DNA from: Bacteroidales bacterium Bact_19
GTDB lineage: Bacteria; Bacteroidota; Bacteroidia; Bacteroidales; ML635J-15
Assembly: GCA_001603595.1 (NCBI GenBank)
Contig: LUZK01000002.1
Span: forward strand, 2,884 to 66,883
DNA: 64,000 bases
Direction: 5' to 3'
The notes beneath the pieces are model-generated. The model saw only the letters and a program-made list of their open reading frames with translations, did not search any database and was not told where the DNA came from. Positions 6,928 through 64,000 of this stretch are shown here, piece by piece (the first letter of the stretch is position 1; every line of letters starts with the position of its first letter). A program made the position numbers and the translations under genes.

Positions 6928-6928
6928 C

Positions 6929-36924: not shown

Positions 36925-36967
36925 TTTTTGTTATTTGTTATTTGGAGTTTGTAATTTGGCATTTGCC

Positions 36968-38108: not shown

Positions 38109-38500
38109 ACCATTGCTCTGGTTATTCGTGCCATGTCGGTAAGCTCTACAACTTTTTTATAACCATTGCTTAACAAAGCTGCTTCGGTTTGTGGTCCGAA
38201 ATATCCATCCTCACTAATTCCAGCTTTGTAGGCTTTGTTTAAGCCCTTCTGAAGGTTTAAAACATAATTGCCTTTGCAACCAAGCTTGATGGGATAAGCT
38301 CGACATTCCTGGTAATCTATTCCACTCTGAATAGGTGTTGGAGATGGTGATGGATTTACTCCTGATCCAGAACCGCCATTGCTTCCTGCGGATGAATCGG
38401 TTCCAAATCCAAAACGCTGCCTTATTTCTTCTCTTTTCCAGAAAATTATTGCTCCAACGATTGCAATAATTATCAGTACAATTACATTTTGCGATTTCAT
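38105..38500 (-). CDS. membrane-anchored peptidoglycan-binding (PG_binding_1-like) protein
   Basis: Has an N-terminal TM. The C-terminus is ...VLNLQKGLNKAYKAGISEDGYFGPQTEAALL... It overlaps the amidase start by 4 nt. Confidence 0.65.
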   Translation of the reverse strand: MKSQNVIVLIIIAIVGAIIFWKREEIRQRFGFGTDSSAGSNGGSGSGVNPSPSPTPIQSGIDYQECRAYPIKLGCKGNYVLNLQKGLNKAYKAGISEDGYFGPQTEAALLSNGYKKVVELTDMARITRAMV

Positions 38501-38510
38501 TTTGTCTGAT

Positions 38511-38990
38511 TTAATAGGTTATTCCACTTTGTCTTAAAATATCGCGAACTTCTTCCATTTCGCCGCTGTCGAGATCATCGGCCAACCAGCTTTTTAAATC
38601 TCCAGTAAGATCAGCGAAAAATGTTCCTCCATCCTTTTTTCTGGTACCAAAACACTTTTGCAAAAAGTTCCAATCGTCCTGAGTCCTCAAGCGCATCATT
38701 ACATCCATGATGCTTTCTTCTTGAGTTCCTGATCCGTTCATCGAGCTTTCTAGAGTAGTACACATTGAATAATACTCACCTTTTTCAAAAGTGAGATTCT
38801 CTGTGTTCACGTCTATCTTCTCGATATCCTTGTGCAACATCCTGCGGATGGCAAACTCTATCTTGTTTTTGAACAAAAGAATAAGCACAACAATTAGTAT
38901 GATTGTCCAGGCTCTCCGCTTTTTGTCGGGAGGCACTGCATCATACCTGCGTTTTGCTTCTATTCCTGTTGCCAACAAATACTGATACAT
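38511..38990 (-). CDS. hypothetical single-pass membrane protein
   Basis: The ORF has the TM segment WTIILIVVLILLF. The C-terminal helical repeat GSGTQEESIMDVMMRLRTQDDWNFLQKCF is faintly annexin-repeat-like. Confidence 0.5.
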   Translation of the reverse strand: MYQYLLATGIEAKRRYDAVPPDKKRRAWTIILIVVLILLFKNKIEFAIRRMLHKDIEKIDVNTENLTFEKGEYYSMCTTLESSMNGSGTQEESIMDVMMRLRTQDDWNFLQKCFGTRKKDGGTFFADLTGDLKSWLADDLDSGEMEEVRDILRQSGITY

Positions 38991-38993
38991 GGA

Positions 38994-39293
38994 CTAAGAT
39001 TTTAAAATTGTCAATACCCTCTTTACATACTTTGGAAGCCTTAGCATCAGCTGAGCTTCTGATAATTCTTCGCCTTCGTCAAGCATTTCCTTAACTACTG
39101 GTATCAATTCAGGTTTTTCATGTATCATCTCGACTGTGCTAATCAAGTCTTCGTGATTGATGGACTGATTGAGAATTTTAAAAGCATTTAGCTTCTGCGA
39201 AAGTTCCTGCGGATCTTCTGCAGTTAGCTGAATTTCTTTCTGAAGCTCTTTGCCTCCTTCGCTGATGGTGATGGATAATTTGTAAGTTTTCAT
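38994..39293 (-). CDS. hypothetical protein
   Basis: The ORF is tightly packed, with 1-3 nt gaps on both sides. Confidence 0.45.
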   Translation of the reverse strand: MKTYKLSITISEGGKELQKEIQLTAEDPQELSQKLNAFKILNQSINHEDLISTVEMIHEKPELIPVVKEMLDEGEELSEAQLMLRLPKYVKRVLTILKS

Positions 39294-39294
39294 C

Positions 39295-40353
39295 TTATTC
39301 TTGATTTTCTTTGTTCAAGTTTTCGTTATCTTCATTTTCGGGATCGCTGCCAGCAAATTCATCTTCTGGAATAAGAACATCCATGAGCTGCATTCTTTGC
39401 TCAACGGATAATCCTTTTATCATTCCAATCAGATTGTCGAAGGAGTTATCGCTGATGTTTTCCTGATTTCCTTTATCAGTAAATCCATCATCATCAAAAA
39501 CTGATTTTGTGCCTTTCAGATTCGATTCTGGTTTTGACTCATCTTTATCAGATTTGTTTTTCTTTTTGAATGATTTTCTAACAAGATCATCAGCTTCAGA
39601 AAGTCCTAAAGCTGATTTGCCAAGTTCTAGCAATCCACCGGCAATTGTTTTGGTGTATTCCTTAACTGTGCCTAATCCTTCAGCTTTGCGTTCTTCAAAC
39701 TCTTCGAGTTGATTCATCAACTTTCTTTCCTTCTCTTCGATTTCTCGAGCTCGAAGTTCAAGTTTGTAGAGTTCCATTTTCATCTCAAGATCGGCAATTC
39801 TCTTGATGGCTTCTGCCTCTCTTTTTGCTGAAATTTCATCATACTCAGCCTTGATGGAGCGTGTGGCATCGGAAACATTTTTGTCTATAATACCTTGGAG
39901 ATCCTGGTATGAAAAACCCCCGAAGCCGCCCATATTTCCTGTTCCTGTTTGCGGTCGAACAGGAAAGCCCGAAAAACCCGTCGGCATCATTTGTTCTTGG
40001 CCAACCGGATATACGGATGTGCCGCCTAAGAACAAAGGCTGTCCCAAATCATTTCCTTTATACTTATCAAACTTAAGCTTGAAGTATTTTTTTGTGGAGT
40101 TTAGCATATTGCCAGGATTGGATTTCTCTGCGTTTCCAATCACTATTACAAGCTCATGCGGATAATCTTTGTTCGCATGATCAATTAGGAAATTTCGGCA
40201 TTTTTCGACATCTGCCGAAGTTCCCGAAATGATTTCTTTCATCTGGTTCTGCAATGGACGTATGCTCCACAAATCATAAATTGGGATGGTATGACTGCAA
40301 AACCTTTCTGCAAAGTTTTCATCGTAATCGTGTATGTCGAAAATATGTTGCAT
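39295..40353 (-). CDS. hypothetical protein with central coiled coil and acidic tail
   Basis: 352 aa. The coiled-coil segment is ...EAEAIKRIADLEMKMELYKLELRAREIEEKERKLMNQLEEFEERK... Confidence 0.55.
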   Translation of the reverse strand: MQHIFDIHDYDENFAERFCSHTIPIYDLWSIRPLQNQMKEIISGTSADVEKCRNFLIDHANKDYPHELVIVIGNAEKSNPGNMLNSTKKYFKLKFDKYKGNDLGQPLFLGGTSVYPVGQEQMMPTGFSGFPVRPQTGTGNMGGFGGFSYQDLQGIIDKNVSDATRSIKAEYDEISAKREAEAIKRIADLEMKMELYKLELRAREIEEKERKLMNQLEEFEERKAEGLGTVKEYTKTIAGGLLELGKSALGLSEADDLVRKSFKKKNKSDKDESKPESNLKGTKSVFDDDGFTDKGNQENISDNSFDNLIGMIKGLSVEQRMQLMDVLIPEDEFAGSDPENEDNENLNKENQE

Positions 40354-40691
40354 TACTTCACTATTTTGATTCGGACGTATTTTACTGTATATGTAAAGCT
40401 GTGAGATCGTGAGAAATTCACAGCTCCTTTGTGTCTGGTGATAATTTCATAGTCAATATTTTGCGGTGTGCTGATTGTCTTTTGTATTATGTGGCTTTCG
40501 CTTGCGGAATGAAACTCAAGCCAAAAATCGGTTGCAACTTCAATATTGATTTCATGTATCAATACTGTTTCATCTCTGGATACGTCAATCCTGTGAGGAC
40601 TGTCGGCCTGATGATGAGTAATTGTATAGGATGGATTTGATCCTATTTCAGTATCTATCATGCTTTTTAATATGCTGTCTGATGATTTCAT
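40353..40691 (-). CDS. hypothetical small beta-rich protein
   Basis: The ORF's stop overlaps the next gene's start and its start overlaps the upstream gene by 4 nt. Confidence 0.5.
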   Translation of the reverse strand: MKSSDSILKSMIDTEIGSNPSYTITHHQADSPHRIDVSRDETVLIHEINIEVATDFWLEFHSASESHIIQKTISTPQNIDYEIITRHKGAVNFSRSHSFTYTVKYVRIKIVK

Positions 40692-40996
40692 TTTTCAAGG
40701 ATTAAATACACTGATGTTTGTTGTCCCATAAATCCGCTAACTACTCCGCTGATAAGCTCCATGTCGAGATTTTTGTCAAAAATCAGTGGTCTTTTGTTTG
40801 GCGGGCAATCCATCGCTTTGCCGAACTCGAAGCTGTGCAACATTACATTCCTGCCGTTGTCGAAATTCAACGACAGATTGACTCCGCCTGAACAAAAAGC
40901 ACCACGAACTCTCTTAAAATCTTTGACAGTGAACCTAAAGGATTCACTGCCTTGATTTTTCAAATCTCCTCCATATATCTTATGCAAAGAGTACAT
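40688..40996 (-). CDS. hypothetical small beta-rich protein
   Basis: The ORF has overlapping junctions on both sides. Confidence 0.5.
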   Translation of the reverse strand: MYSLHKIYGGDLKNQGSESFRFTVKDFKRVRGAFCSGGVNLSLNFDNGRNVMLHSFEFGKAMDCPPNKRPLIFDKNLDMELISGVVSGFMGQQTSVYLILEK

Positions 40997-41381
40997 TTAC
41001 TATCTCTTCTAAATTGTTGGTTAATAATACTTGCACCTGAAGATTGTAATTGGCTGCCCAATCTGGATCGCGGAAACGAATTATCATTTCGTCGCCTGAA
41101 ACCTGAATCGGTTTAAACCAGGAGAAAAATCTTTTATTTGGTGCTACTGAATCGGAACACATCAAGTTGGCAGCTTCGAATTGCTCGGGCAAAACATCTG
41201 CTCCTTTTACTTTCACCTGTTCCAGAACCGAATTTTCACCAGCATTAGCATTTGAGATTGCAATGCCGACAAGATATTTATAATCTTTGTCAAGCTCTTC
41301 CTTCAGCTCATGAACTTTGTCGTTTACTATGACTTTATCAATACACTGAATGATAAAGCTTGTTTTACTCAATTCTGTCAT
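40980..41381 (-). CDS. hypothetical small beta-rich protein
   Basis: The ORF has a 17-nt overlap with the downstream gene. Confidence 0.5.
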   Translation of the reverse strand: MTELSKTSFIIQCIDKVIVNDKVHELKEELDKDYKYLVGIAISNANAGENSVLEQVKVKGADVLPEQFEAANLMCSDSVAPNKRFFSWFKPIQVSGDEMIIRFRDPDWAANYNLQVQVLLTNNLEEIVNVLFA

Positions 41382-41383
41382 AA

Positions 41384-41644
41384 TTATTTCCCTCCTGATT
41401 TTAATCTTTCAGCCTTGATCTTAATTTCCTCAATCTCTTCGGTGTGCTTTTCCAATATCTTTGAATGAAGCTGCACCGACTTTGTGAGATACTCAATATC
41501 CTTCTGACTGCCTTTTATTGCAAGAGCAAGCTCTTGAATAATCTTTTTTAGTTCCCGAACATTGGCAACAAAAAAAGTGAGTGTGACGCCGTTTATCGAC
41601 AGCAACACACTGATTATGATCCCGAATACAGTTTCACTAGTCAT
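41384..41644 (-). CDS. hypothetical single-pass membrane protein with coiled-coil tail
   Basis: I chose the internal start MTSETVFGIIISVLL... This gives an 8-nt overlap with the upstream ORF instead of a 92-nt out-of-frame overlap. Confidence 0.45.
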   Translation of the reverse strand: MTSETVFGIIISVLLSINGVTLTFFVANVRELKKIIQELALAIKGSQKDIEYLTKSVQLHSKILEKHTEEIEEIKIKAERLKSGGK

Positions 41645-41891
41645 TTTGGTTGTCGTCTTTAATGTTTGTACTTCCGGTTCTTCGGTATAAAATTGCTTCA
41701 GCAAATTTCTGGAGTGCTTTTGGTGCAAATCCTGCGGTTATCAGCAGCGCATCCAACTCAAAGTATATCTTTCCTTCAATCATTTGCCAGGTGATGATGA
41801 CAAATGCAAAAATCAATGTCATCAACGATTGCAAACGCATCAGGGAATCTATTCCTTTACGCTCTTCCAGATATCTTTTGATTAAACTCAT
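41637..41891 (-). CDS. hypothetical small membrane protein (holin-like topology)
   Basis: 84 aa with hydrophobic segments LMTLIFAFVIITW and ALLITAGFA. Confidence 0.45.
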   Translation of the reverse strand: MSLIKRYLEERKGIDSLMRLQSLMTLIFAFVIITWQMIEGKIYFELDALLITAGFAPKALQKFAEAILYRRTGSTNIKDDNQND

Positions 41892-41911
41892 ACCTTGATT
41901 TGGTTTTGGTA

Positions 41912-42280
41912 TTATTCAAAATCTTGATTAAAAGTCGTTGTTTGACCTTTTTCAATTTTTACATTTTGAGTTTTTGTGACACCTTCAAACGTAACACTTA
42001 CAGTATAGTCTCCTGCAACAAGCTCCATCTGATAAAAACCATTATCATCTGTTATTGCAGTAAATTTTGTTCCAGATCCATTCACAGCTTGTACTTCAAG
42101 ATTTTTTAGCGGGATAGATACTTTGGTAATTTTCCCACTTAATTTTCCCTTGTTTAACACTTCGCTGATTCCACCAACGCCGCTAACAGCATTGTATAAA
42201 TCAGGATTTTGGCGGATTGATCTTGCCAAATCGGCTCTTGCCTCTTTCGAAAGGGCTTTTATCGCACTCTTTAAATCCAT
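41912..42280 (-). CDS. protein with CarboxypepD_reg-like beta-sandwich
   Basis: Contains ...LSGKITKVSIPLKNLEVQAV...TDDNGFYQMELVAGDYTVSV... Confidence 0.55.
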   Translation of the reverse strand: MDLKSAIKALSKEARADLARSIRQNPDLYNAVSGVGGISEVLNKGKLSGKITKVSIPLKNLEVQAVNGSGTKFTAITDDNGFYQMELVAGDYTVSVTFEGVTKTQNVKIEKGQTTTFNQDFE

Positions 42281-42342
42281 AGCTCTTTGTTTTTAATGAT
42301 TAAAAAATAACAAAGAGGTCCGGTTGCCCGGATCCTCATTCG

Positions 42343-42984
42343 TTAGTAACTCTTTACCTCAGTGCCGATAAGTTTCAGCTTCACAAAACCACTCATGCTT
42401 GTTGGAGCATCTTCGATGTCGAAAGAGATGGTTTTCTTAGGCACAATCAGCTTTGGGTTGTTGAGGATGATGATTCCGAAATCTCTGTTTACATTGTAAC
42501 CAAACACAGGTGCCTGGAACATGTCAACAGGGTTTTTACTCATTATCTCGCGAGTTGCGATCTTAAAGGTGAACACGGCATTTGCCAAGAAATCTGGAAA
42601 GAGTTCGTCGAAACGTCCAGTTGCTCCACTTCTGTATTGCAAACTAATTGCAGATAAAAGGAAGAACTGATTCTCTGCCAGCTCGGCATCGTCTATGTTA
42701 CGAAGCCCGGCTTCACTCTTTTCGTTTTTCTTGATGATGTCGGTACTGGTTCCGGCAAGTTCCCTGATCACAAAATATTCCTTGTCGGAAATTTGTGCTC
42801 TGTCTTCCTTCAACATCTTTTGCATGTTGGGAGGAAGATTCGGAATTCTCTCGATCATCTGTTTTCTGAACAAACTTGCACCAAGTTTTGAAAACTCTGC
42901 TGCCTTTTTTCTACTCTCGGCTCCAACTTCTAAGTTGCCGCTTAATCCGCTGAGGATGATTTCCTCACTTGTCATTTCGCTCAT
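42343..42984 (-). CDS. hypothetical protein, first gene after the iteron-rich intergenic region
   Basis: 213-aa ORF with a beta-rich C-terminal half. No motif recognised. Confidence 0.55.
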   Translation of the reverse strand: MSEMTSEEIILSGLSGNLEVGAESRKKAAEFSKLGASLFRKQMIERIPNLPPNMQKMLKEDRAQISDKEYFVIRELAGTSTDIIKKNEKSEAGLRNIDDAELAENQFFLLSAISLQYRSGATGRFDELFPDFLANAVFTFKIATREIMSKNPVDMFQAPVFGYNVNRDFGIIILNNPKLIVPKKTISFDIEDAPTSMSGFVKLKLIGTEVKSY

Positions 42985-43026
42985 TTTAGTAATTATTTTA
43001 ATTAAACATTAGTAAGTAATTTCTTT

Positions 43027-43157
43027 GCATGGCGCATGGCGCATAGGGCATGGGGCTGTTTGTGCTAAAATTTTACATTTTTCTTTTTGCATAATACTAT
43101 TTTTGGCACAAATGTCCTGCTCACTGCTATTTGAGCTCCATGCTCCATGCTCCATGC
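43027..43157. repeat. inverted arrays of the heptamer GCATGGN
   Basis: GCATGGC GCATGGC GCATAGG GCATGGG lies at 43027-43054. Three CTCCATG units (the reverse complement of CATGGAG) lie at 43136-43156, separated by about 80 bp of AT-rich spacer. Confidence 0.75.
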
Positions 43158-43200
43158 TTTTCATTATCACAATTTTATTTTTAAAATCAACTTTCCACTT

Positions 43201-43243
43201 AAGTACTTTAGGCACTTTAGGCACTCCAAGTACTCTAGGCACT
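43201..43243. promoter_or_regulatory. iteron-like direct repeats
   Basis: TAGGCACT occurs at 43209, 43218 and 43236. AAGTACT occurs at 43201 and 43228. All lie in the 262-bp non-coding gap inside the otherwise gapless module. Confidence 0.6.
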
Positions 43244-43246
43244 TTT

Positions 43247-43498
43247 TTACCTGTAAAGCTCACTCGAAGCCTGTCTGATGCAGTTTTTCCACTTCATCTT
43301 TGGATGTGTTTCCCTGATTTTCTTTGCCCTTTCGGTAATCATTTTAAATCTGGATGACACTTCTGCATTTTTCTTTTTGCCTGCAAGTGTTCTATACTTT
43401 TTGGGCTTAGCTGTGATGCTTTTTCTTTTCATTCCGCTTACTGGTGTTTTGGTCTCAACTACGCTTTTTTTTTTACTGCTTTCCAGGCTTCTTTCCAA
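43247..43498 (-). CDS. small, extremely basic hypothetical protein
   Basis: 83 aa and Lys/Arg-rich (KKKS...KRKSITAKPKKYRTLAGKKKN...). It overlaps the end of the 732-aa gene by 40 nt. Confidence 0.45.
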   Translation of the reverse strand: MERSLESSKKKSVVETKTPVSGMKRKSITAKPKKYRTLAGKKKNAEVSSRFKMITERAKKIRETHPKMKWKNCIRQASSELYR

Positions 43499-45657
43499 GC
43501 TTTTGATCCTCCTCCTTTTTCTTTAGCAATTTGTCGCACTTGACTGAACATTTGATTATATTCGTGTGCTGCTGCTATCTGCTTTGGAGATAGTGGTCTG
43601 GCATAAGCTTCGGTGAAAATCTTTTTGTAATATTTCTTTCGGTGAACTTCATCATAAGGCTTTTTATCCTTTTTGATTTCTTCACGAACGAGTGTTGCGT
43701 AAGCTTTGCTGTTCAAGCCCTGGCGTTTGAGGTAGTTTGCCTGCTTTTGAGAGATTGGAGCTTCACCAAGTCCTCTGAGCGATCGCTGGCGAATTTTCCA
43801 GATTACCAATGCTGCAATTCCAATGGTGACAATAACTGCCACAATTATCAGCATAGTTTTGTTTTTGATCAAGAAATACTTGAATCTGCTGATTTCGTTA
43901 CCGTCTTTGTCACGGTAGATTTTTGTCTCTTTACCGTTCTCATCAATAACGGTTTCAACACTTACACCTGACTTTTCGTCGGTCTGAACATTGGATGTTG
44001 CAGCAGCTGCTCCATCTGGTGTTTCTTTTTCTGATCCTGTTGCCATATACTTTGATTTTGTTTGTGTATTACTTGCCGGACTTGGAGCCTCTTTTGTTTC
44101 GTCAACGATGCTGCCGTCCGGTCTTTTCAATTTCAGATTTTTAACTATCGCTATAATGCTGCCGAATACCTGGGTCACGGCAGCAATTATCGCTGGAGCA
44201 ATCCCGAGCTGTCCTTTTAGTCCGGCTTTTCTTGCTCCACGACCATTCATAACCATAGTCTTAAAATAGGCTTTGTCGCCTCCTAATGAATGCCACTTTT
44301 GTTCTGCCTTATCCTTTGCATCAACAAACTGTTTCCATTCTGCTGTGGTGTAACCAAGCTTTTTAGCATCGGCTTCACTGGCATAACCAATGGCGAGTTT
44401 CTCGGCCATAAACAATGCGTTTGCTCTCAGAAAAGCTTCCATTGACTTTCTTAATGTGAAAGTTGCTGGATTGTACTTATTAAGTGCATGACCAACTTTT
44501 GCAATCTTTGGATTGTTTTCTTTAAACTTCTGAACGCCTTGTTTTACTTTGGCTCCGATTTTCTTCAGAAGGCCGCCAGATTTTGGAGCATTAGGATTTT
44601 TCCGTAGCTTGATGGCTGCAAGTCCTTCAAGATCGTCTGGCGAATACTTGTCGCTGATCAGTTCTTGAAGCATATCGTTGTCGGCCAAAACTTTGAGATA
44701 ATACAATTCTTCATCGCCATCGCCTGACAATCCTTTTACAGATTCGTCGAGTCCAAATTGAATGGCTTTGTAGAAATTCTGGTAGAGTGTTCCCTTGCTG
44801 ATGGCGTTGCGGATGGCTTCATCACGGCTTTCGTCATCGGCAAAGCTGCTGATGATTTCGTTAACAAGAGCAAGTTCTTGTTGGTTGTCGTTAAGTTGTG
44901 ACATCTCGGATGGACTGGTCACTTCTTTTTCGAGTGTTTGCTTTGCATCCACCAATTGTTTTAGGATGATATTGCGCTGTAGTTCCGACCCAGTTATCAC
45001 TGAATCGAAATCATCTTCTGGACCAACAATTGCAACATTGCCAAGTATGCCCTGGACAATCTCAAGTTGGTCGTCCTCCACATAAGCACCGGACAGGTTC
45101 TCCGGATCAAAATTCTGTGTGAGCTCGCTGATCATGTCAGCGGAAACTGAGCCTAATTCTTCTAATCTCATGTCAATAATTATTTGATTCTTAATCGGTT
45201 TTGCTTCAAAATTGAAATATGGAATTTCTGGAACGCAGTCAATCACGTATCTTGTTCCATCGCTGCTGTATGCTACTGGGTAAATATGTTGCCACTGACT
45301 TTCTTTTTTATAAGCAGCGATAACAAGCTCGTGTTTGTGGCCAAGATTTGTCAGGATTGCTGAAATGAGTATGCTCATATCATCGCAATCGCCAATCTGA
45401 TCGTAAAGTGTTCGTTGTGGGGTGCGCAATTGTTCTCTTCCTGGCTGATCGTTTTGATAACGGATGTTTTGACGGACAAAGTTCCAGATACCTTCGAAAG
45501 TTGACTTGCAATTATTTGCCTGAAGATTGAACGCCAGTTCCTGAACTGCTGGATAATTCTCTCCAACTATTCTCTTGATGGCATCAATGGTGTCGTAAAC
45601 ATCTGCATATTGCTTGAGTGTTGTACTTTTTCCCGAAACTGTATAGTCTTTCATCAT
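43459..45657 (-). CDS. large membrane protein with N-terminal transglutaminase-like cysteine protease core
   Basis: The Cys context is YDQIGDCDDMSILISAILTNLGH, the His context is ...WQHIYPV... and the Asp context is ...YVIDCV... TM segments are GIAPAIIAAVTQVFGSIIAIV and MLIIVAVIVTIGIAALVIW. The tail is very basic. Confidence 0.7.
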   Translation of the reverse strand: MMKDYTVSGKSTTLKQYADVYDTIDAIKRIVGENYPAVQELAFNLQANNCKSTFEGIWNFVRQNIRYQNDQPGREQLRTPQRTLYDQIGDCDDMSILISAILTNLGHKHELVIAAYKKESQWQHIYPVAYSSDGTRYVIDCVPEIPYFNFEAKPIKNQIIIDMRLEELGSVSADMISELTQNFDPENLSGAYVEDDQLEIVQGILGNVAIVGPEDDFDSVITGSELQRNIILKQLVDAKQTLEKEVTSPSEMSQLNDNQQELALVNEIISSFADDESRDEAIRNAISKGTLYQNFYKAIQFGLDESVKGLSGDGDEELYYLKVLADNDMLQELISDKYSPDDLEGLAAIKLRKNPNAPKSGGLLKKIGAKVKQGVQKFKENNPKIAKVGHALNKYNPATFTLRKSMEAFLRANALFMAEKLAIGYASEADAKKLGYTTAEWKQFVDAKDKAEQKWHSLGGDKAYFKTMVMNGRGARKAGLKGQLGIAPAIIAAVTQVFGSIIAIVKNLKLKRPDGSIVDETKEAPSPASNTQTKSKYMATGSEKETPDGAAAATSNVQTDEKSGVSVETVIDENGKETKIYRDKDGNEISRFKYFLIKNKTMLIIVAVIVTIGIAALVIWKIRQRSLRGLGEAPISQKQANYLKRQGLNSKAYATLVREEIKKDKKPYDEVHRKKYYKKIFTEAYARPLSPKQIAAAHEYNQMFSQVRQIAKEKGGGSKAWKEAWKAVKKKA

Positions 45658-45741
45658 AAAATCAATTTATTTTCAGCGGTATGATGGAACCTCCATCTCT
45701 AATCGACAACATTTTTTTATTTGTCATTTTTAATGGAGGTT

Positions 45742-46299
45742 TCATAATAGCAGATAGTCTTCGTTAACACTAAGTGTGATTCCCTCAGCCTGGATAAAGC
45801 CAATAAGTTTTACTTTTAGCTGTTTCAGATGCACTTGATTCCAGTATGTTGCTGGTTTTGAAACCACCTGCCATACTGTTGCATCTGGCGGCAACACTTC
45901 CGATTCCTTAAAAAGCGACAATGAATTGAATAGGTCAACATTGTATTCCAATGGAATATTTGTTACCTGTCGATTTTTAAGAACTAAGTTTCCTGGAAGT
46001 ATGTTTGTTTGCTCGGCTACCAGCTTCTGGCTCTTTGGCGAATAGCAGTCCAAACTAAGTTGATTGAGAGTGTAATCTTTACCTGAGAAATTGCGGATCT
46101 CGATGTATCCTTTCATTTTAAAACCACTGGTGAAAATGTCCACCAAATCTTTAAAGCTTTCAAGCTTCTTCGCAGCTTTAAGCGAGGTATCTCCAAGCTT
46201 CAGCTTTTCGGTGTCCTTCACCCTCTTAAAAAACTTCCAGGCTATTCCGAAAGTCAGAATAACCGCTACAATAATCAGGATATGTTTCAGCTTTGGCAT
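45742..46299 (-). CDS. hypothetical N-terminally anchored protein (LEA_2/beta-sandwich-like?)
   Basis: Has the TM segment ILIIVAVILTFGIAW. The remainder is beta-rich. Confidence 0.5.
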   Translation of the reverse strand: MPKLKHILIIVAVILTFGIAWKFFKRVKDTEKLKLGDTSLKAAKKLESFKDLVDIFTSGFKMKGYIEIRNFSGKDYTLNQLSLDCYSPKSQKLVAEQTNILPGNLVLKNRQVTNIPLEYNVDLFNSLSLFKESEVLPPDATVWQVVSKPATYWNQVHLKQLKVKLIGFIQAEGITLSVNEDYLLL

Positions 46300-49989: not shown

Positions 49990-51186
49990 TTATTCACTCT
50001 TATAGTGTCTCGAAATATACTCTGCAATTTTTGTAACAACTTCATTGGCGATATTATATTTCGTTGTTTCCATGCCATTTGAATATTCTTGAAGTTTTGA
50101 ATATAATTCATATTTATCCCAAATGTCCTCAATTGTACCGTCAATCCATATGTGATATTTGAACTTTACATTTTCCATACTTCTGTTAAAATCGACCTGT
50201 CCAATAAACAACGAACCTTCTCGATGTCCTTTACCACTAAAGGATTCTATTCCAAAGAAAATGCGATCATCCTTACTCACTCTCAGCCATATTGTGCTAA
50301 ATCTTTCGTTATTGTTCTTTAATGAAATTAGCTCACTTTCAGAAATTATATTTTTCTTGAGGAGTAAATCTTTTATTTGAACTTTAAGTTCATCTGAAAC
50401 TTTATCAATCGCATTGTTAAATTCTTGAGCGATTTTTTCTGAATTAATAATATTGGAAAGTATTATCTGATGTATTTCATTTTTCATTTCAATTGTGCTT
50501 ACTTGATTTGTTAGAGATCTAACTAAAATTATATATTGCTTAATTGATTCTCGTATAATTGGGATATCAGTGGATTCTTTATAACACATTTCAAGCCAAT
50601 CCAAAATATCTTTTTTGTAGGATAAGGAATAGTAATCTTTGCCTGAATGCAACTTACTTTCTACACTATTCTCTCCATTTAAAGTTAAGTAAATAAGAAT
50701 TTTGTTTTGCTTCGGGATTCTATTTATATAACTTCTATAGCGTTCTAATTGAAGACTCTGATCACTAGCATATATTTTGTTTTCAATACAAATTTGAAAA
50801 ATGTCATTTGAAATTAAAATATCAATTCGTCCTCCATTGTTACTTTTAACTTTTCCGATGTCCTTTTCACATTCAACAATGACATTTTTCAATTTATTCG
50901 AATCGGGAACATCGGCATTTTCCCAATCGCAATCAGATGCTTTCTTTCTGTTAAGCATTTCAATAAATAAAAACAAAAACTTTTCATCGAGTAAGTGAGA
51001 ACCTTTTGGATTCAGTAATTCGCTTATAAAGGCAGAATGAGTTTTAACTTCATCAGTTCTTCGATCAAGAATGTTAAATAAATTAAATTTCTCTCCTTTA
51101 ATTTTTTCAATTTCTCTAAATTTCTTTATAGACCTCCCGATTAAATCCAGAGTAACATCAATTGACTTTTTTTCGATGTCTGTCAT
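49990..51186 (-). CDS. PD-(D/E)XK nuclease family protein (PDDEXK_4-like)
   Basis: The N-terminal region is FNLFNILDRRTDEVKTHSAFISELLNPKGSH. The catalytic core is GGRIDILISNDIFQICIENKIYASDQSLQLERY. Confidence 0.75.
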   Translation of the reverse strand: MTDIEKKSIDVTLDLIGRSIKKFREIEKIKGEKFNLFNILDRRTDEVKTHSAFISELLNPKGSHLLDEKFLFLFIEMLNRKKASDCDWENADVPDSNKLKNVIVECEKDIGKVKSNNGGRIDILISNDIFQICIENKIYASDQSLQLERYRSYINRIPKQNKILIYLTLNGENSVESKLHSGKDYYSLSYKKDILDWLEMCYKESTDIPIIRESIKQYIILVRSLTNQVSTIEMKNEIHQIILSNIINSEKIAQEFNNAIDKVSDELKVQIKDLLLKKNIISESELISLKNNNERFSTIWLRVSKDDRIFFGIESFSGKGHREGSLFIGQVDFNRSMENVKFKYHIWIDGTIEDIWDKYELYSKLQEYSNGMETTKYNIANEVVTKIAEYISRHYKSE

Positions 51187-56036: not shown

Positions 56037-58694
56037 TCAGTTAATCAATTGCCCCACTTTATTAACAACCTTATATTCAATGTCATCAAATTCATTAAAA
56101 TGAGCTTTGCCACATTTTATCTTCAGTTGCTCATCGCCGCTAAGTTTTAACAGATCGACTTCTTTAGTTCCAGTGTCCTTTGTTTCAGTCACAAAATAAA
56201 CTTTTTTATCGCCCTCAAAAACTATTGCCCAGTCAGGATTATACTTTCCAATTGGGGTAGGGATTTTAAACCAGTTTGGAAGTTTAAAATAAAATTTAAC
56301 TTGCTCACTTGTTTCACAATCTTGTGCAAATTTGCTTTCTACACCAGAATCCAAAGGCATGAATTCTTCATAAATAGTTTTTGAGTTATCTGAAACCTTA
56401 AATGTAAAATCATTTAAGTAAACAAAAAAATCCTTATCATCAAACAATTCTAGTGCGTAAAATTCAGAATCTCCAATTTTATGATACTTAATTCCATCAA
56501 TCATAAGATCGTACAAAGTGCGATTGATTGCCTGCGAAGCCAAATCAAGAAATAATTGTGGATTTATCAAAATATCTCCAATACGGCCAGATTCACTTAA
56601 AATTTCTTGAATTGTTGATCTTGTTAATTCTGTTTTGCTCTGTATATAACCCAAAACATCGGGAATTTTCCAAGAATAACCGCCATATGATTCTATCTTG
56701 TCGCCAACGTAAGAAGTGCCAACGCCTTCATCGGTCATTGTAACCGAGACTTTTGTAGAGCGTATTGAAGGTGCTTTTATTTCGGATATTTCCTTTAAGG
56801 ATTTTGCAGCAAGTATAATCAAGTCTTTTGTAGAGTAATCAACCCGATAAGTTGTTTTGGTTCTAATTTTTTCCCAAATTTCAAGAAAACGTGAGTCGGC
56901 TTCAAACCCTTTGCGGTATTTGATTTGTGTTAGGTCTTTTGAATTTTTAATACGACCAGTAAATTTAACCCCGCAATCTTCTTCAATTTCTTTTTGCAGT
57001 GCTTTTGCAAAGTCGTCATACGATTCGTTTGCAATAACAGTCAGGCGGTTTATGGTTTGGTCATAAATTCGTTTACCTTCCTTATCAACTGCAAGTCTTA
57101 AACCTCGTCCAATTTCCTGACGTTTTTTTATTTCTGATTTTGTTTCGTTTAGCGTACAAATTTGAAATACATTTGGATTATCCCAACCCTCACGCAATGC
57201 TGAATGCGAAAAGATAAAACGTAATGGATTCTCTACATCCAAAAGTTTTTCTTTGTCTTTCATTATAAGGCTGTATGTGTCATCATCAGCCTGGGTTTCG
57301 CCCGAAGTGTCTTTCATTTTTCCTTTTTTGTCTTGCGAAAAATAGCCGTTGTGTATCTCAGCAATTGGGAAATTATCAAGTGTTTTAAATGCTGGTTTGG
57401 CAATTAGTTCTTTATAAATTTCCTCAAACCACATGGCAAATTTTCCATGATTTGAGTTTCCCGAAGCATCGTATTGCCTATAATTTGCAACTTTATCAAT
57501 AAAGAAAAGCGATAATACTTTAATCCCTTTGGGTTTTAAACGAAGTTCTTTTTTTAGGTGTTCTTCAACCGTTTTGCGAATTTGAAACTTCATTATTTCA
57601 TCTGTCAAACCGCCTTGTGAATCGCCTTTGTATAAGATATTACCATTCGATAATGAAATGCATTGGTTTGAAGCATCTATTTCTTCAATGATATAACCAT
57701 TTGAGTAAATTTCTCGCTCATTTGAAAGTTTATATAGGTCGTCGCCAACTTTTACAGTAAATGTTTTTTTCTTTACGGCATCCTTTTCATTAACAAAGAT
57801 TGAAACTTTTGCAGTTACCTTTGTTTTCGCAGCAAATAAAGAATCGAGCGAAACAAATGCATCATTATTAGAGTTTTCCTCAATTATGGAATCAACCTCA
57901 ATTTGTTTTACCAAACCCATGTCGTAGGCTTTTACAGGATTGAGGCTGTATGTAAGGTTATATTGGTTTTTGTGAGTTGCAGAATAACGAAGCGTACAAA
58001 GTGGTATGAGATTATCAATAGCTGTAATACGTTTTTCGGTTTCCATGTTTTGCGGTTCGTCCACAATTACAATTGGATTGGTAGTTTGAATAAACTCAAC
58101 TGGTCTTTGACCGTTTAATTTATCGTTTGGTTTATTAATAATGTTTTCGTCTTTGGCAAATGAATCAATATTGATTACTAAAACCTCAATATTGTTGCCT
58201 GTTGCAAAACCTCGCAACGATGAAACTTTTGTACTGTCGTAAACCTGAAAATGAACTGGAACATTATCGTAAAGATTTTGAAAATGTTCATGTGTGATTT
58301 CGAGGTTTTTTAAAACACCTTCACGGATTGCCACCGATGGAACAACAATTACAAATTTCTTAAAACCATATTGTTTAAAAAGCTCATAAATAGTGCGCAA
58401 ATACACATAAGTTTTACCTGTACCTGTTTCCATTTCTACCGAAAAATGAAAACCGTCTAACTTCTCGGTCTTGCAAATATCATTTACGGTTTGAATTTCC
58501 TGTAAATTTTCAAGTACCTGTTCTTCGGACAATACAAGTTTATTTCCAATTCCATTGATTAAATCTAATTTGCCTTTTTCTTCAAGTTTAAATTCCACAA
58601 TGGAATCTTCCATTGGCTGCCCCTCAAACAAGGCTGTAATAGACTTTATTGCATCTTGCTGATATTGCAAATTGGGTTCAAAAGATAGCTTCAT
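56037..58694 (-). CDS. res: Type III restriction enzyme Res subunit (SF2 helicase + PD-(D/E)XK)
   Basis: Walker A is EMETGTGKTY and motif II is IVIVDEPQNM. The helicase C-terminal motif is ...ALREGWDNPNVF... The C-terminal nuclease is NPDWAIVFEGDKKVYFVTETKDT. Confidence 0.88.
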   Translation of the reverse strand: MKLSFEPNLQYQQDAIKSITALFEGQPMEDSIVEFKLEEKGKLDLINGIGNKLVLSEEQVLENLQEIQTVNDICKTEKLDGFHFSVEMETGTGKTYVYLRTIYELFKQYGFKKFVIVVPSVAIREGVLKNLEITHEHFQNLYDNVPVHFQVYDSTKVSSLRGFATGNNIEVLVINIDSFAKDENIINKPNDKLNGQRPVEFIQTTNPIVIVDEPQNMETEKRITAIDNLIPLCTLRYSATHKNQYNLTYSLNPVKAYDMGLVKQIEVDSIIEENSNNDAFVSLDSLFAAKTKVTAKVSIFVNEKDAVKKKTFTVKVGDDLYKLSNEREIYSNGYIIEEIDASNQCISLSNGNILYKGDSQGGLTDEIMKFQIRKTVEEHLKKELRLKPKGIKVLSLFFIDKVANYRQYDASGNSNHGKFAMWFEEIYKELIAKPAFKTLDNFPIAEIHNGYFSQDKKGKMKDTSGETQADDDTYSLIMKDKEKLLDVENPLRFIFSHSALREGWDNPNVFQICTLNETKSEIKKRQEIGRGLRLAVDKEGKRIYDQTINRLTVIANESYDDFAKALQKEIEEDCGVKFTGRIKNSKDLTQIKYRKGFEADSRFLEIWEKIRTKTTYRVDYSTKDLIILAAKSLKEISEIKAPSIRSTKVSVTMTDEGVGTSYVGDKIESYGGYSWKIPDVLGYIQSKTELTRSTIQEILSESGRIGDILINPQLFLDLASQAINRTLYDLMIDGIKYHKIGDSEFYALELFDDKDFFVYLNDFTFKVSDNSKTIYEEFMPLDSGVESKFAQDCETSEQVKFYFKLPNWFKIPTPIGKYNPDWAIVFEGDKKVYFVTETKDTGTKEVDLLKLSGDEQLKIKCGKAHFNEFDDIEYKVVNKVGQLIN

Positions 58695-58697
58695 GGT

Positions 58698-60767
58698 TTA
58701 AATTGTTTTAAATTCAATACCTGCATCTTTCATTTGCAATACAGTGTTGGTTTTTAATTGGTCGTTGCCTTTGAATAACTTATCCAAAGCAACTACTTTC
58801 AATGGTTTTTCTTTTAAAACTGCATCAATGATTTCCTGTGTAGCTTTTTCGAGCATGAAAACCAGTTCGTTTCCATTTATTTTGAAATAGTATGTTGCTC
58901 GTTCAATCTTGCAATTCAGGTCTTTACCACTTTTTAAAAGTAACTCGTAAACCATGTTTTCAATAGTTGCATTTTCGGCTACGGGGTCAATGAAAAGTTT
59001 CATTTGTTCCTCTAATGCCTTAGCATCTTTACCATTAATTTGCTGCCATTGTTTAAAGTTGCTATCGTTTAGTTTTAGGACTTTAAAACCTTTATCGCAT
59101 TGGTCTATTTTATCCATTTTCTCGATATTCTCATTGGCTTTGTCCCTTGCTATTTCCTGTTGCTTAATAAGTTTTTCTATTTCGGGGCTATGCTTGCCAT
59201 CGTTGAACATTGAGGCAGGCTGGTTCTTTTTCAGTTCCTCAATTTGTTGTTGCAGTTCAGCAACCTTTTCCATTAGGTTGGCTGTTTCTTTGCCTAATGT
59301 TTCTTTTTCTGTTTGAATTTTTTTTATAACCCTACGTATTCTTTCTTTTGAAACATCTGAAATAGTTTTATAACCAGAATTGAAAGCTTCGCTTTTATCA
59401 TCACATTGTTCGTCAAGTTGAACACAGATAAATTTTCTTTTGCTTCCATCTTGTTTATTTAAATCCAAAACAGCATGTGCTGTTGTACCAGAACCTGAGA
59501 AGAAATCCAAAATTATTTCTTCTTTATTTTGTTCGTCATTTTTCGCTACAGGATTAAATAATAACATCATCTTTTGAATTAAAGTAGTAGGTTTTGGAAA
59601 TGTAAAAGCATCAATTTCCATTAACTCTTTAATCTCTTTTGTCCCCAAATCGACTGTACCAGCCTCACTAAATTTCCAAAAATTTATTGGGACCATTCCT
59701 TCGTCAAGTTCAGATAAAAATCTTTTAATTCTAGGATATTTTGCTTTACCGTCAGCCCCCCAATGCAATCTGTTTTCTCTCAAAAACTCTTCATATTTTT
59801 CTTTGCTTACTTTCCAAGCATTAGTAGGATGGTCTATTTCTTCACCTGTATTTGGATTAACAATAGTGTATGATAAATTTGGTCTTGCTTCACGTGTTAC
59901 TTGGTTTACAAATGAAACACTTGTCCAAATCCCACGAGGGTCATTATCGGGATTAGAATAACCTTCTTGTTTGTCTTCGGGTCTAGTTTCACGTAAAACT
60001 TCAACATCAGTTGATTTACGATAAAAGAGAATATGCTCAGTTGATGCTGTCATTAATTTTGCATTATTGCTCCTTCCATATCGCTTCTCCCAAATAATGT
60101 TTGAAATAAAATTTTCCTCTCCAAAAACTTCATTCATCAATAATCGAAGATTGTGTACCTCATTATCATCAATTGAAACGAAAATTAGACCATCTTGTCT
60201 TAATAAGTTCTTAGCCAAAAACAATCGAGGATACATCATATTGAGCCAATTGCTATGGTATTGTCCGTTTTCTTTGCTGTTTTTACGGAACATACCGTCT
60301 TTGGTCATGTAGCCCTCTTCGTCTTTGTCGCCTACACGTTTTTGGTATTCTTCTTTAGTTTCTGAAAATTTGTCGGGGTAAATAAATGAATCGCTGCCGG
60401 TGTTGTAAGGTGGGTCAATGTATATCATTTTAATTTTACCGAAATAGCTTTTTTGCAGTACTTTCAGCACTTCAAGGTTTTCGCCCTCAATAAAAATATT
60501 TTCGGTTTCGTCAAAGTTTATAGATTCTTCTTTTGCAGGGATTAAAGTCTTTGTGGTTGGTGCTTGTAACACTTTAAAAGCCTCGCTTTTACCAGCCCAA
60601 TTTAAGACATAACGCTCGTTACTAAACGTAATGTCCTCGCCAAGTGTGGCTTTCAGTTTTTCCCAATCAATTTTTCCTTCGGTAAATACTTCAGGGAGTA
60701 TTTCCTGCAGGGCTTTTATTTTTTCCGTTTCTGGTGTGAGACTTTGTCCGTTCATATCATTGTTCAT
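58698..60767 (-). CDS. mod: Type III Mod DNA methyltransferase (beta-class, DPPY before FxGxG)
   Basis: Contains IYIDPPYNTGSD and then ILDFFSGSGTTAHAV. A long coiled-coil insert follows (...EKVAELQQQIEELKKNQ...). Confidence 0.88.
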   Translation of the reverse strand: MNNDMNGQSLTPETEKIKALQEILPEVFTEGKIDWEKLKATLGEDITFSNERYVLNWAGKSEAFKVLQAPTTKTLIPAKEESINFDETENIFIEGENLEVLKVLQKSYFGKIKMIYIDPPYNTGSDSFIYPDKFSETKEEYQKRVGDKDEEGYMTKDGMFRKNSKENGQYHSNWLNMMYPRLFLAKNLLRQDGLIFVSIDDNEVHNLRLLMNEVFGEENFISNIIWEKRYGRSNNAKLMTASTEHILFYRKSTDVEVLRETRPEDKQEGYSNPDNDPRGIWTSVSFVNQVTREARPNLSYTIVNPNTGEEIDHPTNAWKVSKEKYEEFLRENRLHWGADGKAKYPRIKRFLSELDEGMVPINFWKFSEAGTVDLGTKEIKELMEIDAFTFPKPTTLIQKMMLLFNPVAKNDEQNKEEIILDFFSGSGTTAHAVLDLNKQDGSKRKFICVQLDEQCDDKSEAFNSGYKTISDVSKERIRRVIKKIQTEKETLGKETANLMEKVAELQQQIEELKKNQPASMFNDGKHSPEIEKLIKQQEIARDKANENIEKMDKIDQCDKGFKVLKLNDSNFKQWQQINGKDAKALEEQMKLFIDPVAENATIENMVYELLLKSGKDLNCKIERATYYFKINGNELVFMLEKATQEIIDAVLKEKPLKVVALDKLFKGNDQLKTNTVLQMKDAGIEFKTI

Positions 60768-60785
60768 TTCAATTTATTTATCATT

Positions 60786-61724
60786 TTACCAATACCTTTT
60801 ATTCAGATAGGTTATTAAACTTCTGTAATTATTGTCAAAAATAAGAGGTTTTAATAGTTTTTGAGGTGTAATAACATTGTATTTTCCCGGTTCTTTCAAT
60901 TGCGACTTCCATGCTTCTTCAATTCCTGATTGCATCAAATCCGGCGCAGTAACCTGATAACGTAGGTTAAGGTTGTTTTCGGGAATTATATCAAAATGCA
61001 ACCAATCATCGGCATTTAATTCATTCGCTTTATTTTTTGTCATTTGCCAAGCCAACAAGGTTTGTCGCATGATTTGGTAAAAGGGTTCGTAATATAAATT
61101 GTCTATACTTACTGTCCTCTTTATGGGCGAATCTTTGTCATCAATCAATGCATCATATCTGTTTTTTCTGGTTGCACCGCTTGAACCTTCAGACTTATCA
61201 GATTTTGAATAAAGCTCTGTATATTTCCATTCAATAAGAACTTGTATTTTCTTTCCATTCTTTAGTTTTCCTGTCATCATCGCATCTACAGAAGTACAAT
61301 TAGCACCACGTGTTTGCTCTTTACCTTCTGCAACTTCTCCGAGATAACTATGTTTACTCACTACTTCAAAGCCAATATATCCATTTTCAAAGTCAGGGAA
61401 AACCTCTACAAAGTCTGAATTTAGATTTTGCAAAACTCTTAAAGCAGCTTCCTTATCATTTCTCAGAAAGAACAAATGATTTACACAAGAAACCTGCGAC
61501 GACAACAAATGTCCAGACGGTTCTGTAGAACCAGGCCACCACACAATATCATATAAATCAAAATATTTTATTGCATCCTTTCGAATTTTAGCCCATATAT
61601 TTTTTTTTGCATCAGTCAAAACAAAGGGATAGTCAACTCCTTGATGCAGTCCTTTGCCAGGGTCTTTAAAGAAAGAATCTCTTATTCTAATTACTTTTTC
61701 TCTTTCAACTTCTCTGTAATTCAT
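60786..61724 (-). CDS. hypothetical protein with PD-(D/E)XK-like core, first gene of the R-M operon
   Basis: Contains ...GHLLSSQVSCVNHLFF... and ...CTSVDAMMTGKLKNGKKIQVLIEWKYTE (D...E-x-K). It lies 18 nt upstream of mod. Confidence 0.5.
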   Translation of the reverse strand: MNYREVEREKVIRIRDSFFKDPGKGLHQGVDYPFVLTDAKKNIWAKIRKDAIKYFDLYDIVWWPGSTEPSGHLLSSQVSCVNHLFFLRNDKEAALRVLQNLNSDFVEVFPDFENGYIGFEVVSKHSYLGEVAEGKEQTRGANCTSVDAMMTGKLKNGKKIQVLIEWKYTELYSKSDKSEGSSGATRKNRYDALIDDKDSPIKRTVSIDNLYYEPFYQIMRQTLLAWQMTKNKANELNADDWLHFDIIPENNLNLRYQVTAPDLMQSGIEEAWKSQLKEPGKYNVITPQKLLKPLIFDNNYRSLITYLNKRYW

Positions 61725-62211: not shown

Positions 62212-63177
62212 ATGCAAAAAATAATACTATTGCAAGAAATTATTGATGATCTAGTTAATCCTGAGACAAGTTTATCATCACCACTAATTAAATTAAACTA
62301 TTTTTCAAAATTAATTAGAAATGAAGATCTTATTTCATACACAAATAATGAATTGAATGGTTACACTCAAGATCTTAACGAAATTCCTAGTTACAGAAGA
62401 GCTTCTGCCACCATACTTATTGATTTTCAGGTTTCTACACATCGGCATAATAATAAGCAGCTACCTATTATATTGCTTGAGAAAGACCATCAAGAATACT
62501 TCAATTACATTTACATAAAAGAGGGTATTGCTGTTATTGAAGACTTTGTAAAAGATAGTTTCAGTGACCACAATTATGAAAAATTATATGTCATGCCAAT
62601 TCCTATGGAAATTCTTCCAGCACTTCAAGAGCCAGCGCGAAAACTATACAAGGCATTTTCCAGAGTTGATGTCGTTAATGCAAATTTAACAACTAATTTT
62701 AGTTCAGTAATTGCTATTCCCAATGCAATTAGAGTTAGATTGCTTGATTTCGTTATGTCAATTGCTGAAGATTTCGGCGACAAATTAGAAATAGAATCTT
62801 TTAATAAAAAATCTACAGAAAACAATAAAACAATAATAAATCATATGAATACAACAATAAACAATTCCGGAGATGGTAACGTCATCAATACAGGAAATGA
62901 AAATGAAATTGACAATAAAGTAACTTTGTACAAAGGTGATATTCAAAGACTAAAGAAAGAACTTCTAAACCATGGAATAGAAGAAAATGACATTTCGGAA
63001 CTCAATAAAATAATTACAAGTGAAGAACCGAACAGAGAACATAATCGTTTAGGTGTAAAATCAATTGATTGGATTTCAAATATTATTAAAAAATCATTAA
63101 ATGGAGTAGGAAAAATTGCTTCTGGTATTTCATCAACAATTCTAGCTGAATTAATTAAACAATATTACGGGATGTAA
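62212..63177 (+). CDS. AbiTii-like domain protein
   Basis: The N-terminus LLQEIIDDLVNPETSLSSPLIKLNYFSKLIRNEDLISYTNNELNGY...IPSYRR matches my recollection of the AbiTii N-terminal domain pattern. Confidence 0.5.
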   Translation: MQKIILLQEIIDDLVNPETSLSSPLIKLNYFSKLIRNEDLISYTNNELNGYTQDLNEIPSYRRASATILIDFQVSTHRHNNKQLPIILLEKDHQEYFNYIYIKEGIAVIEDFVKDSFSDHNYEKLYVMPIPMEILPALQEPARKLYKAFSRVDVVNANLTTNFSSVIAIPNAIRVRLLDFVMSIAEDFGDKLEIESFNKKSTENNKTIINHMNTTINNSGDGNVINTGNENEIDNKVTLYKGDIQRLKKELLNHGIEENDISELNKIITSEEPNREHNRLGVKSIDWISNIIKKSLNGVGKIASGISSTILAELIKQYYGM

Positions 63178-63192
63178 TAAAACCAATATAAT

Positions 63193-63369
63193 ATGAAAAC
63201 ACAGGCAAATTCAAATCCAATATTAAGTTTTAGAGAAAAACAAGCCTTGAAAAGCAATGCCAAGTTAAGCACTGTAAATTGTAAGAAACAGGAATCTGTT
63301 TTAAATGATCATGGCACAATGATTACAGAAACCAGAGAACAAATTGATACAAGTGAAATAAGTGGTTAA
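63193..63369 (+). CDS. candidate RiPP (graspetide-type) precursor peptide 1, 58 aa
   Basis: Below the ORF-track cutoff. The sequence is MKTQANSNPILSFREKQ...HGTMITETREQIDTSEISG. It is paralogous to the next ORF. Confidence 0.5.
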   Translation: MKTQANSNPILSFREKQALKSNAKLSTVNCKKQESVLNDHGTMITETREQIDTSEISG

Positions 63370-63371
63370 TT

Positions 63372-63575
63372 ATGAAAAACAATCCAATTTTAAACTTTAG
63401 ATTTTTACAAAAGGAATCTGTTGTAAAAAAAGATTCAGACAAAACACAATTTAAAGATGCTGGTTTAAAAAATCAAGCAACAATGATTACAAAAAGTAGA
63501 GAAGCTATCGATAGTTCTGAAATATCAATGACCTATGAATCAATGCAAGACACTATTCATTTCGAACAGAAATGA
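63372..63575 (+). CDS. candidate RiPP (graspetide-type) precursor peptide 2, 67 aa
   Basis: The sequence is MKNNPILNFRFLQKE...QATMITKSREAIDSSEISMTYES... Confidence 0.5.
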   Translation: MKNNPILNFRFLQKESVVKKDSDKTQFKDAGLKNQATMITKSREAIDSSEISMTYESMQDTIHFEQK

Positions 63576-64000
63576 TGTTACGACAGACTACTTAATATCC
63601 AAGTTTAAAGAATATTCTTCGGACTTTCTTAGAATTGATTCTGAAGATATTAATTTAATTGATATTGAGTATAATGACAAACATGGAACATTGGTATCAA
63701 TAGACGATTCAACTTACGAATTGTCTCAAGTAAAATCGGCATATTATCGCAGAGCTCCAACAACTTTTGCTTCAGTCGAAGATGAACTTGATAAACCATA
63801 TCTATATAATGAACGAAGACATTTTTTTGAAGGGATTTATTTAGGCATAAATGGATGTAAATGGATTAACCCCATATTTAAAACTTATTCAGGTGAAAGA
63901 AAATTAATGCAACTTAGTTTAGCTAAAAGAATTGGTCTTCATATACCAGAGACAATTGTTACAAATAAGTTGATAAAAGCAAAGGAATTTATAAGTAAAA
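63535..64000 (+). CDS. ATP-grasp family protein (N-terminal part; runs off the right edge), MvdC/MvdD-like RiPP maturase candidate
   Basis: My translation from ATG 63535 is MNQCKTLFISNRNDVTTDYLISKFKEY...SGERKLMQLSLAKRIGLHIPETIVTN. The last motif is the usual start of the ATP-grasp central domain. The ORF is absent from the track because it is open-ended. Confidence 0.6.
   Translation, partial: MNQCKTLFISNRNDVTTDYLISKFKEYSSDFLRIDSEDINLIDIEYNDKHGTLVSIDDSTYELSQVKSAYYRRAPTTFASVEDELDKPYLYNERRHFFEGIYLGINGCKWINPIFKTYSGERKLMQLSLAKRIGLHIPETIVTNKLIKAKEFISK

Follow-up and report, generated by a model that had tools for sequence, protein, structure and literature searches.

The stretch of DNA analysed here, a window of 64 kb, very probably ends within a compact cassette of three genes for a graspetide (omega-ester RiPP) of the thuringinin branch, for which side-chain cross-links are predicted. 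The cassette takes up the final ~800 bases of the window on the plus strand, and the window end cuts through its third gene. In the list of open reading frames, two tandem small ORFs are present exactly as the initial annotation had described them: precursor gene A, or E-type (63193..63369, +), encodes 58 aa (MKTQANSNPILSFREKQALKSNAKLSTVNCKKQESVLNDHGTMITETREQIDTSEISG), and precursor gene B, or K-type (63372..63575, +), encodes 67 aa. The third ORF begins at ATG 63535 (MNQCKTLFISNRNDVTTDYLISKF...), overlaps precursor B by the 41 nt that had been reported (63535-63575), and stays open through base 64000. According to its translation and profile matches, it encodes the N-terminal 155 codons (63535..64000, +) of a putative ATP-grasp RiPP maturase (graspetide ligase), the remaining ~160 codons of which lie beyond the window.

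The 155-aa ligase fragment matched the NCBIfam model TIGR04187 with an E value of 4.2e-22 (model positions 3-155 of 312), and further matches were obtained with MvdC (E 1.9e-13), MvdD (E 8.1e-13) and Grasp-with-SPASM (E 3.2e-10). All four models describe ATP-grasp ribosomal peptide maturases and are covered in their first half, which agrees with the entry into an ATP-grasp fold that had been proposed for this ORF. In addition, the fragment matched the microviridin ligase structure MdnB 5ig8 (E 4e-7) and, weakly and under the gathering score, the Pfam MvdD pre-ATP-grasp domain (E 1.6e-4). A word-based protein search with the fragment returned one relative, and an exhaustive HMMER profile search was required to recover the others: 3938 ligase relatives at E <= 0.001, mostly of 310-330 aa. 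The nearest full-length relative is the 317-aa ligase of loci L023 and L024, with 77% identity to the fragment across all 155 residues. Full-length relatives (P0003, P0004, P0005 and the gene of L016) matched the maturase models TIGR04187, TIGR04185, TIGR04184 and TIGR04192 end to end, with E values from 1e-57 to 1e-68. Among solved structures, MdnB 5ig8 (E 2.6e-29) and MdnC 5ig9 (E 1.3e-26) aligned with P0003 from end to end, and the alignment of relatives with MdnB/MdnC takes in the DWR and EINPxGEW motifs of the C-terminus. The initial annotation had made its reading depend on a complete ATP-grasp domain, and the full domain is indeed found in full-length relatives of 313-321 aa that are up to 77% identical to the fragment. 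The scores of the ligase relatives are all under the NCBIfam curated cut-offs, as is that of the characterised thuringinin ligase TgnB (173 bits vs 350); no equivalog model covers this branch of ligases. Each related locus has one ligase. A look-up of the names of ligase cluster members gave the generic label 'RimK-type ligase-like' alone, and a plasmid search for the ligase yielded nothing but distant ligases of <= 35% identity.

The two precursors are 49% identical to each other and share a leader, as had been claimed: NPILSFR in precursor A (63214..63234, +) and NPILNFR, extended to NPILNFRFL, in precursor B (63381..63401 for the seven-residue motif, +). This motif is kept as NP[IL]Lx[FY][RK] in the precursors of all relatives. 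Both leaders fit Phhx(1,2)h, the graspetide leader signature derived by Makarova et al. (PMC8939145), as P-I-L-S-F in A and P-I-L-N-F in B. The common block rich in Thr/Ser and Asp/Glu that had been pointed out is likewise present, as TMITETREQIDTSEIS in A and TMITKSREAIDSSEIS in B. The core peptides are TMITETREQIDTSE in precursor A (63316..63357, +) and TMITKSREAIDSSE in precursor B (63480..63521, +). Per-position conservation over 28 distinct cores gives T-x-I-T-x-[T/S]-R-E-x-x-D-x-[S/T]-E as the consensus, with T4, R7 and E14 found in 28/28 cores and E8 and D11 in 27/28, counts in which part of the conserved positions was fixed by the search pattern itself. Position 13 is Ser or Thr in 27 of the 28. 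In TMITETREQIDTSE, T1, T4 and T6 are putative ester donors, and E8, D11 and E14 are putative acceptors. The donors (T1, T4 and T/S6) all lie N-terminal to the acceptors, each of these positions being kept in 27-28 of the 28 cores, and the order of donor before acceptor is a rule for the cores of all known graspetides. Among the relatives, the leader and core are kept and the linker between them varies freely, which is the pattern expected of a RiPP precursor.

Related loci contain one to three precursors, each with one to four cores, and the two window precursors have one core each. Bacteroidota loci retain this pair of paralogues with its order unchanged, an E-type precursor (ITETRE) preceding a K-type precursor (ITK[T/S]RE). 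E-type orthologues of precursor A occupy the same position in L001, L004, L007, L008, L010, L016 and L024. Past its core, precursor B extends by 17 aa at the C-terminus (ISMTYESMQDTIHFEQK), into the start of the ligase gene, and K-type orthologues with this extension were detected in L001, L016, L023, L024 and L025. The tail of the K-type precursors (ISMT[YH]E[ES]M[QH]D[TS]..., window 63522-63575) lies partly within the stretch overlapping the ligase and is absent from relatives such as L004, L007 and L008; the tail may owe its conservation to the ligase codons in the overlap and not to a role of its own. A second leader element, Y/F-D-x-x-x-G-x-W, was observed in longer precursors (L005 111-461, L006 1549-1845, and L009-L014) and in the Psychrobacillus precursors of a published graspetide census; the short precursors of the window and of its nearest relatives lack it.

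We gathered 31 related loci by look-ups of encoding contigs, a genome scan and a metagenome scan. Exact look-ups of precursor B and of the AbiTii protein encoded upstream of it gave no match, and the nearest of the loci is 77% identical. The genome scan contributed loci from Arcicella, Aquimarina, Mucilaginibacter hurinus, Clostridium tepidiprofundi, a Bacteroidetes genome, a Eubacteriales genome, an Ignavibacteriaceae genome and a PVC-group genome, and the related loci as a whole span Bacteroidota, Clostridia, Ignavibacteriaceae and a PVC-group genome. Wherever the flanks are present in these 31 loci, the gene order of precursor(s), ligase and membrane protein is conserved. We also searched the window and the first 14 loci, translated in six frames, for the core pattern [TS]xx[TS]x[TS]RExx[DE]xx[DE], and every match lay in a small ORF directly 5' of the ligase, on its strand. 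Such placement of the core pattern beside the ligase is far above chance. The 17 further loci agree wherever upstream sequence exists, some of them with degenerate cores or assembly frameshifts. The small ORFs had been expected to accompany homologues of the ligase, and among the 31 related loci they do so beside every homologue having upstream sequence.

In every locus with downstream sequence, the gene directly 3' of the ligase, usually overlapping it, encodes a three-helix membrane protein of 250-311 aa with the invariant residues H34, H39, E81, K83, Y90, S128, R130, C131, K135 and N172. By synteny with every relative, the remaining part of the window ligase and a membrane protein of ~280 aa almost certainly lie just past base 64000; the ligase would be expected to end in ...EINPxGEWxWLE..., and the membrane-protein gene, overlapping it, to encode the motifs H..(L/I)PH, S.RC and N..VADNTAD. 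Pfam and NCBIfam scans assigned the membrane protein to no family, and its 66 homologues are all annotated as hypothetical. A confident AlphaFold2 model (mean pLDDT 81.8) is all-helical; its helices are long and its C-terminus forms a coiled coil. Foldseek found nothing significant for this model in PDB or BFVD. No protease or transporter gene is linked to the cassette in any of the 31 loci. The membrane protein is the sole candidate for export or immunity, and our guess is that it serves in export of the product or in immunity of the producer.

The cassette is usually surrounded by restriction, abortive-infection and mobile-element genes. An AbiTii abortive-infection gene (62212-63177, +; 321 aa; Pfam E 3e-27, PADLOC E 9e-30) ends shortly before precursor A, which begins 15 nt after it on the same strand; this tight junction suggests that the cassette may be co-transcribed with the AbiTii gene. 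Tight same-strand junctions with other defence genes were also observed in L001/L016 (an MmeI-type enzyme) and L009 (a RiboL-PSP HEPN protein). On the minus strand, the window contains a type III restriction-modification system consisting of Res (56037-58694) and Mod (58698-60767), and a REase-ARP / PD-(D/E)XK nuclease gene (60786-61724) next to the AbiTii gene. With a further PD-(D/E)XK protein (49990-51186, -), a hit to the PADLOC candidate defence family PDC-S26 at E 1.5e-94, the features of a defence island extend over the 50-64 kb region. Among the relatives, Eco57I/MmeI-type restriction-modification enzymes flank L001/L016, L006 and L031; ParA and a RiboL-PSP HEPN protein flank L009; an Mrr/nSTAND protein flanks L020; an AAA_21/AAA_15 ATPase flanks L021; a DUF4011 helicase flanks L005; and DUF4365 and YhcG nucleases flank L011 and L020. 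Integrases or transposases flank L008, L011, L012 and L013, and housekeeping genes surround L007 and L030. Elsewhere in the window, the region 36000-46000 (-) has a G+C content of 0.37-0.41 vs ~0.31 and many short same-strand ORFs, including an amidase/endolysin-like gene (37527-38108), a tail-fibre-like fragment (41912-42280) and a gene for a transglutaminase-like protein of 732 aa; this block may be what is left of a prophage or tailocin. The tRNA genes tRNA-Pro(GGG) (6854-6928) and tRNA-Ser(TGA) (21748-21837) do not adjoin the cassette.

Given this setting, we considered whether the cassette could instead be a conflict or anti-phage module of defence islands, in which the membrane protein would act as a Pycsar-TM-like effector that forms pores or disrupts membranes and the cross-linked peptide would restrain or trigger it. 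We regard this as unlikely. It is favoured by the neighbouring AbiTii and type III restriction-modification genes, by the defence-like genes that flank several relatives, and by the lack of any linked transporter or leader protease in all loci. The membrane protein also matched two PADLOC PycTM models weakly (E 4.8e-4 and 4.3e-3), and a precomputed match to Pfam PF18967 is listed for 3 of its 66 homologues. However, the PycTM matches are marginal and were not reproduced by a separate Pfam scan at E <= 1, the predicted fold of the membrane protein has no significant counterpart in PDB or BFVD, and the ligase gave no match in the PADLOC search. Moreover, several loci lie amid housekeeping genes (L007 and L030) or next to transposases and integrases alone (L008, L012 and L013), and small accessory cassettes of any function tend to gather in such islands. 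In viral contigs, neither ligase relatives nor copies of the cassette were found. Finally, a Pycsar system combines a PycTM effector with a linked pyrimidine cyclase, and a cyclase-like gene was found in one of the 31 loci. A nucleotide cyclase was accordingly rejected as a component of the cassette: the 188-aa guanylate-cyclase-like gene (weak Pfam PF00211) occurs in L006 alone (455-1021, ~0.5 kb upstream of the precursor) and is absent from the other 30 loci and the window.

It is still less likely that the window copy is a decayed, non-functional remnant of a graspetide cassette. The downstream half of its ligase lies outside the window, and the ligase of a close relative, represented by L001-L003 on three independent contigs, has an in-frame TAA. 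However, none of the three frames seen in the window is interrupted, the leader, core and N-terminal part of the ligase are conserved, and L016 and L024, as sister loci, have intact copies too. In L001, the single TAA is located at 8295-8297, where relatives have Ala, Pro or Ser, and the same codon was observed in L002 and L003, in three contigs from three samples of this 67%-identical sister locus. A frameshift in the L001 ligase, which was considered as well, was ruled out in favour of this single stop codon. The near-identical L016 has Ser at the position of the TAA and an intact ligase; L001-L003 probably represent a nonsense-mutated copy within one population.

That the ATP-grasp enzyme would be a RimK/LysX-like amino-acid ligase extending or tagging the small proteins, or the small ORFs unrelated regulators, is highly improbable: RimK models do match full-length relatives (Pfam RimK E 3e-7; TIGR00768 E 1e-8 to 1e-15), but such matches are expected of any ATP-grasp enzyme, whereas each of the top four models is a RiPP-maturase ATP-grasp, 40-50 orders of magnitude ahead of RimK/LysX, the ligase has an MvdD-type pre-ATP-grasp domain, and the precursors contain no Glu/Asp tails and show a strictly conserved internal Thr...Glu/Asp pattern instead.

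For the preferred reading, a graspetide cassette, a mechanism may be proposed by analogy with characterised ligases. The window ligase would bind the N-terminal leader NPIL[S/N]FR, as suggested by MdnB/MdnC, PsnB and TgnB. With ATP, it would convert the side-chain carboxylates of Glu and Asp in the core to acyl phosphates, and the hydroxyls of the upstream Thr/Ser residues would then attack these acyl phosphates and generate side-chain macrolactone rings. The invariant Arg forms a mirror axis in the core T1-x-I-T4-x-T6-R-E8-x-x-D11-x-S-E14, which gives the pairs T6/E8, T4/D11 and T1/E14. Because the donor and acceptor positions mirror each other about Arg7, nested rings are predicted: esters T6-E8, T4-D11 and T1-E14, two or three per core, would shape the peptide into a small hairpin. 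To our knowledge, every characterised graspetide is a protease inhibitor, and protease inhibition would therefore be the default expectation for the product.

If this reading is right, graspetides gain a well-delimited and widely scattered family that occupies at least 31 loci across several phyla. Its core is unusually regular and symmetric, with three donors, an invariant Arg and three acceptors, and its E-type and K-type precursor paralogues have been retained since ancient times. The minimal layout of three genes makes the cassette an easy target for heterologous expression. In addition, the always-linked membrane protein and the recurrent position next to restriction and abortive-infection genes could shed light on the role of such membrane proteins and on a possible part of some graspetides in conflicts with phages or mobile elements. 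Should the conflict-module reading prove true, the membrane protein of thuringinin-branch clusters would have a role other than export.

Several known graspetides may be compared with the window cassette. Microviridin (group 1; MdnA/MdnB/MdnC) has the core TxKxPSDxxE, the leader PFFARFL and two ligases. It resembles the window family in its ligases, MdnB/MdnC being the best match among solved structures, and in its leader, since the family also has a short, hydrophobic leader started by Pro. In contrast, the window family has no TxKxPSDxxE, no conserved lactam Lys, one ligase, and no GNAT or ABC-transporter/protease genes. The initial annotation had noted that the core is unlike that of microviridin, and this was confirmed, as both core and leader differ.

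Thuringinin, like the window cassette, has one ATP-grasp ligase, Thr-only donors and Glu/Asp acceptors. When the repeat TIVTETIENADPDE of its precursor TgnA was aligned with TMITETREQIDTSE, T1, T4, T6, E8, D11 and E14 coincided. The group 3 core motif that Lee et al. reportedly described in 2020, TxxTxxxExxDxD, is consistent with the TgnA repeats. In the window, T1, T4, E8 and D11 fit this motif, whereas Ser/Thr stands in place of its last Asp, and TgnA lacks the invariant Arg7 of the window family. TgnA is trivalent, with the tandem repeats TTIVTETIENADPDE, TTIHTFTVENNDTDE and TTRITKTLENIDPDE (PMC8939145 supplement); the window precursors, in contrast, are monovalent, and those of relatives carry 1-4 cores. 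Gene order differs as well: the B. thuringiensis HS18-1 plasmid has the ligase, membrane protein and precursor in this order, whereas the precursor(s) come first in the window family. Thuringinin clusters have a specific membrane protein of their own (census cluster 18; PMC8939145), and an hhalign comparison of the family membrane protein with it revealed no significant similarity (probability 1.2%, E 0.045). The B. thuringiensis thuringinin ligase (TgnB) is 26-33% identical to the ligases of the related loci; this direct identity is low, and the window ligase would fall in the thuringinin branch indirectly, via the Psychrobacillus ligase that accompanies the same precursor family. Thuringinin contains two esters per repeat, and OEP6-1 contains three nested ones (PMC12291112). 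OEP6-1, a stem-loop graspetide of group 6 from Bacteroidetes, has the topology that the symmetric arrangement of three donors and three acceptors would suggest for the window cores. The ligases of group 6 belong to the same thuringinin branch (PMC8939145 supplement).

The closest correspondence was found in the supplement of the same census, which lists three adjacent precursors of Psychrobacillus sp. FJAT-21963 in clusters 2737 and 6621 (PMC8939145). Their cores are TLVTETREGIDRSE, TLITKTREGIDQSE, TRTREGVDRSE and TYTRESIDRSE (PMC8939145). The neighbouring ligase is assigned to 'Branch_Thuringinin' and to no group of Lee et al., and these entries, which appear in the supplement alone, are uncharacterised (PMC8939145). 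Among these precursors, KQL33360 is 44% identical to the precursors of L012/L013 from Clostridia over 96 aa, that is, over its full length (E 2e-18), and KQL33358 and KQL33359 match at least 12 loci more weakly. The short precursors of the window have the same core as those of Psychrobacillus, yet they are absent among the top listed matches of the census queries. They also differ from the Psychrobacillus precursors in being shorter (58 and 67 aa), in lacking YDxxxGxW, in having a single core and in coming from a low-GC lineage, probably of Bacteroidota. The full-length precursor matches and the common core indicate that census clusters 2737 and 6621 and the related loci make up one family. 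The suggestion of a less-studied or new graspetide group therefore holds in its first part and fails in its second, since the core is already present in clusters 2737 and 6621 (Makarova 2022). As the same core is recorded in the census for Psychrobacillus, within the thuringinin branch, the window cassette is, on sequence grounds, a further member of an already listed and uncharacterised precursor family rather than a new group. It shares with the Psychrobacillus clusters the same core, the same type of leader and the arrangement of several paralogous precursors beside one ligase.
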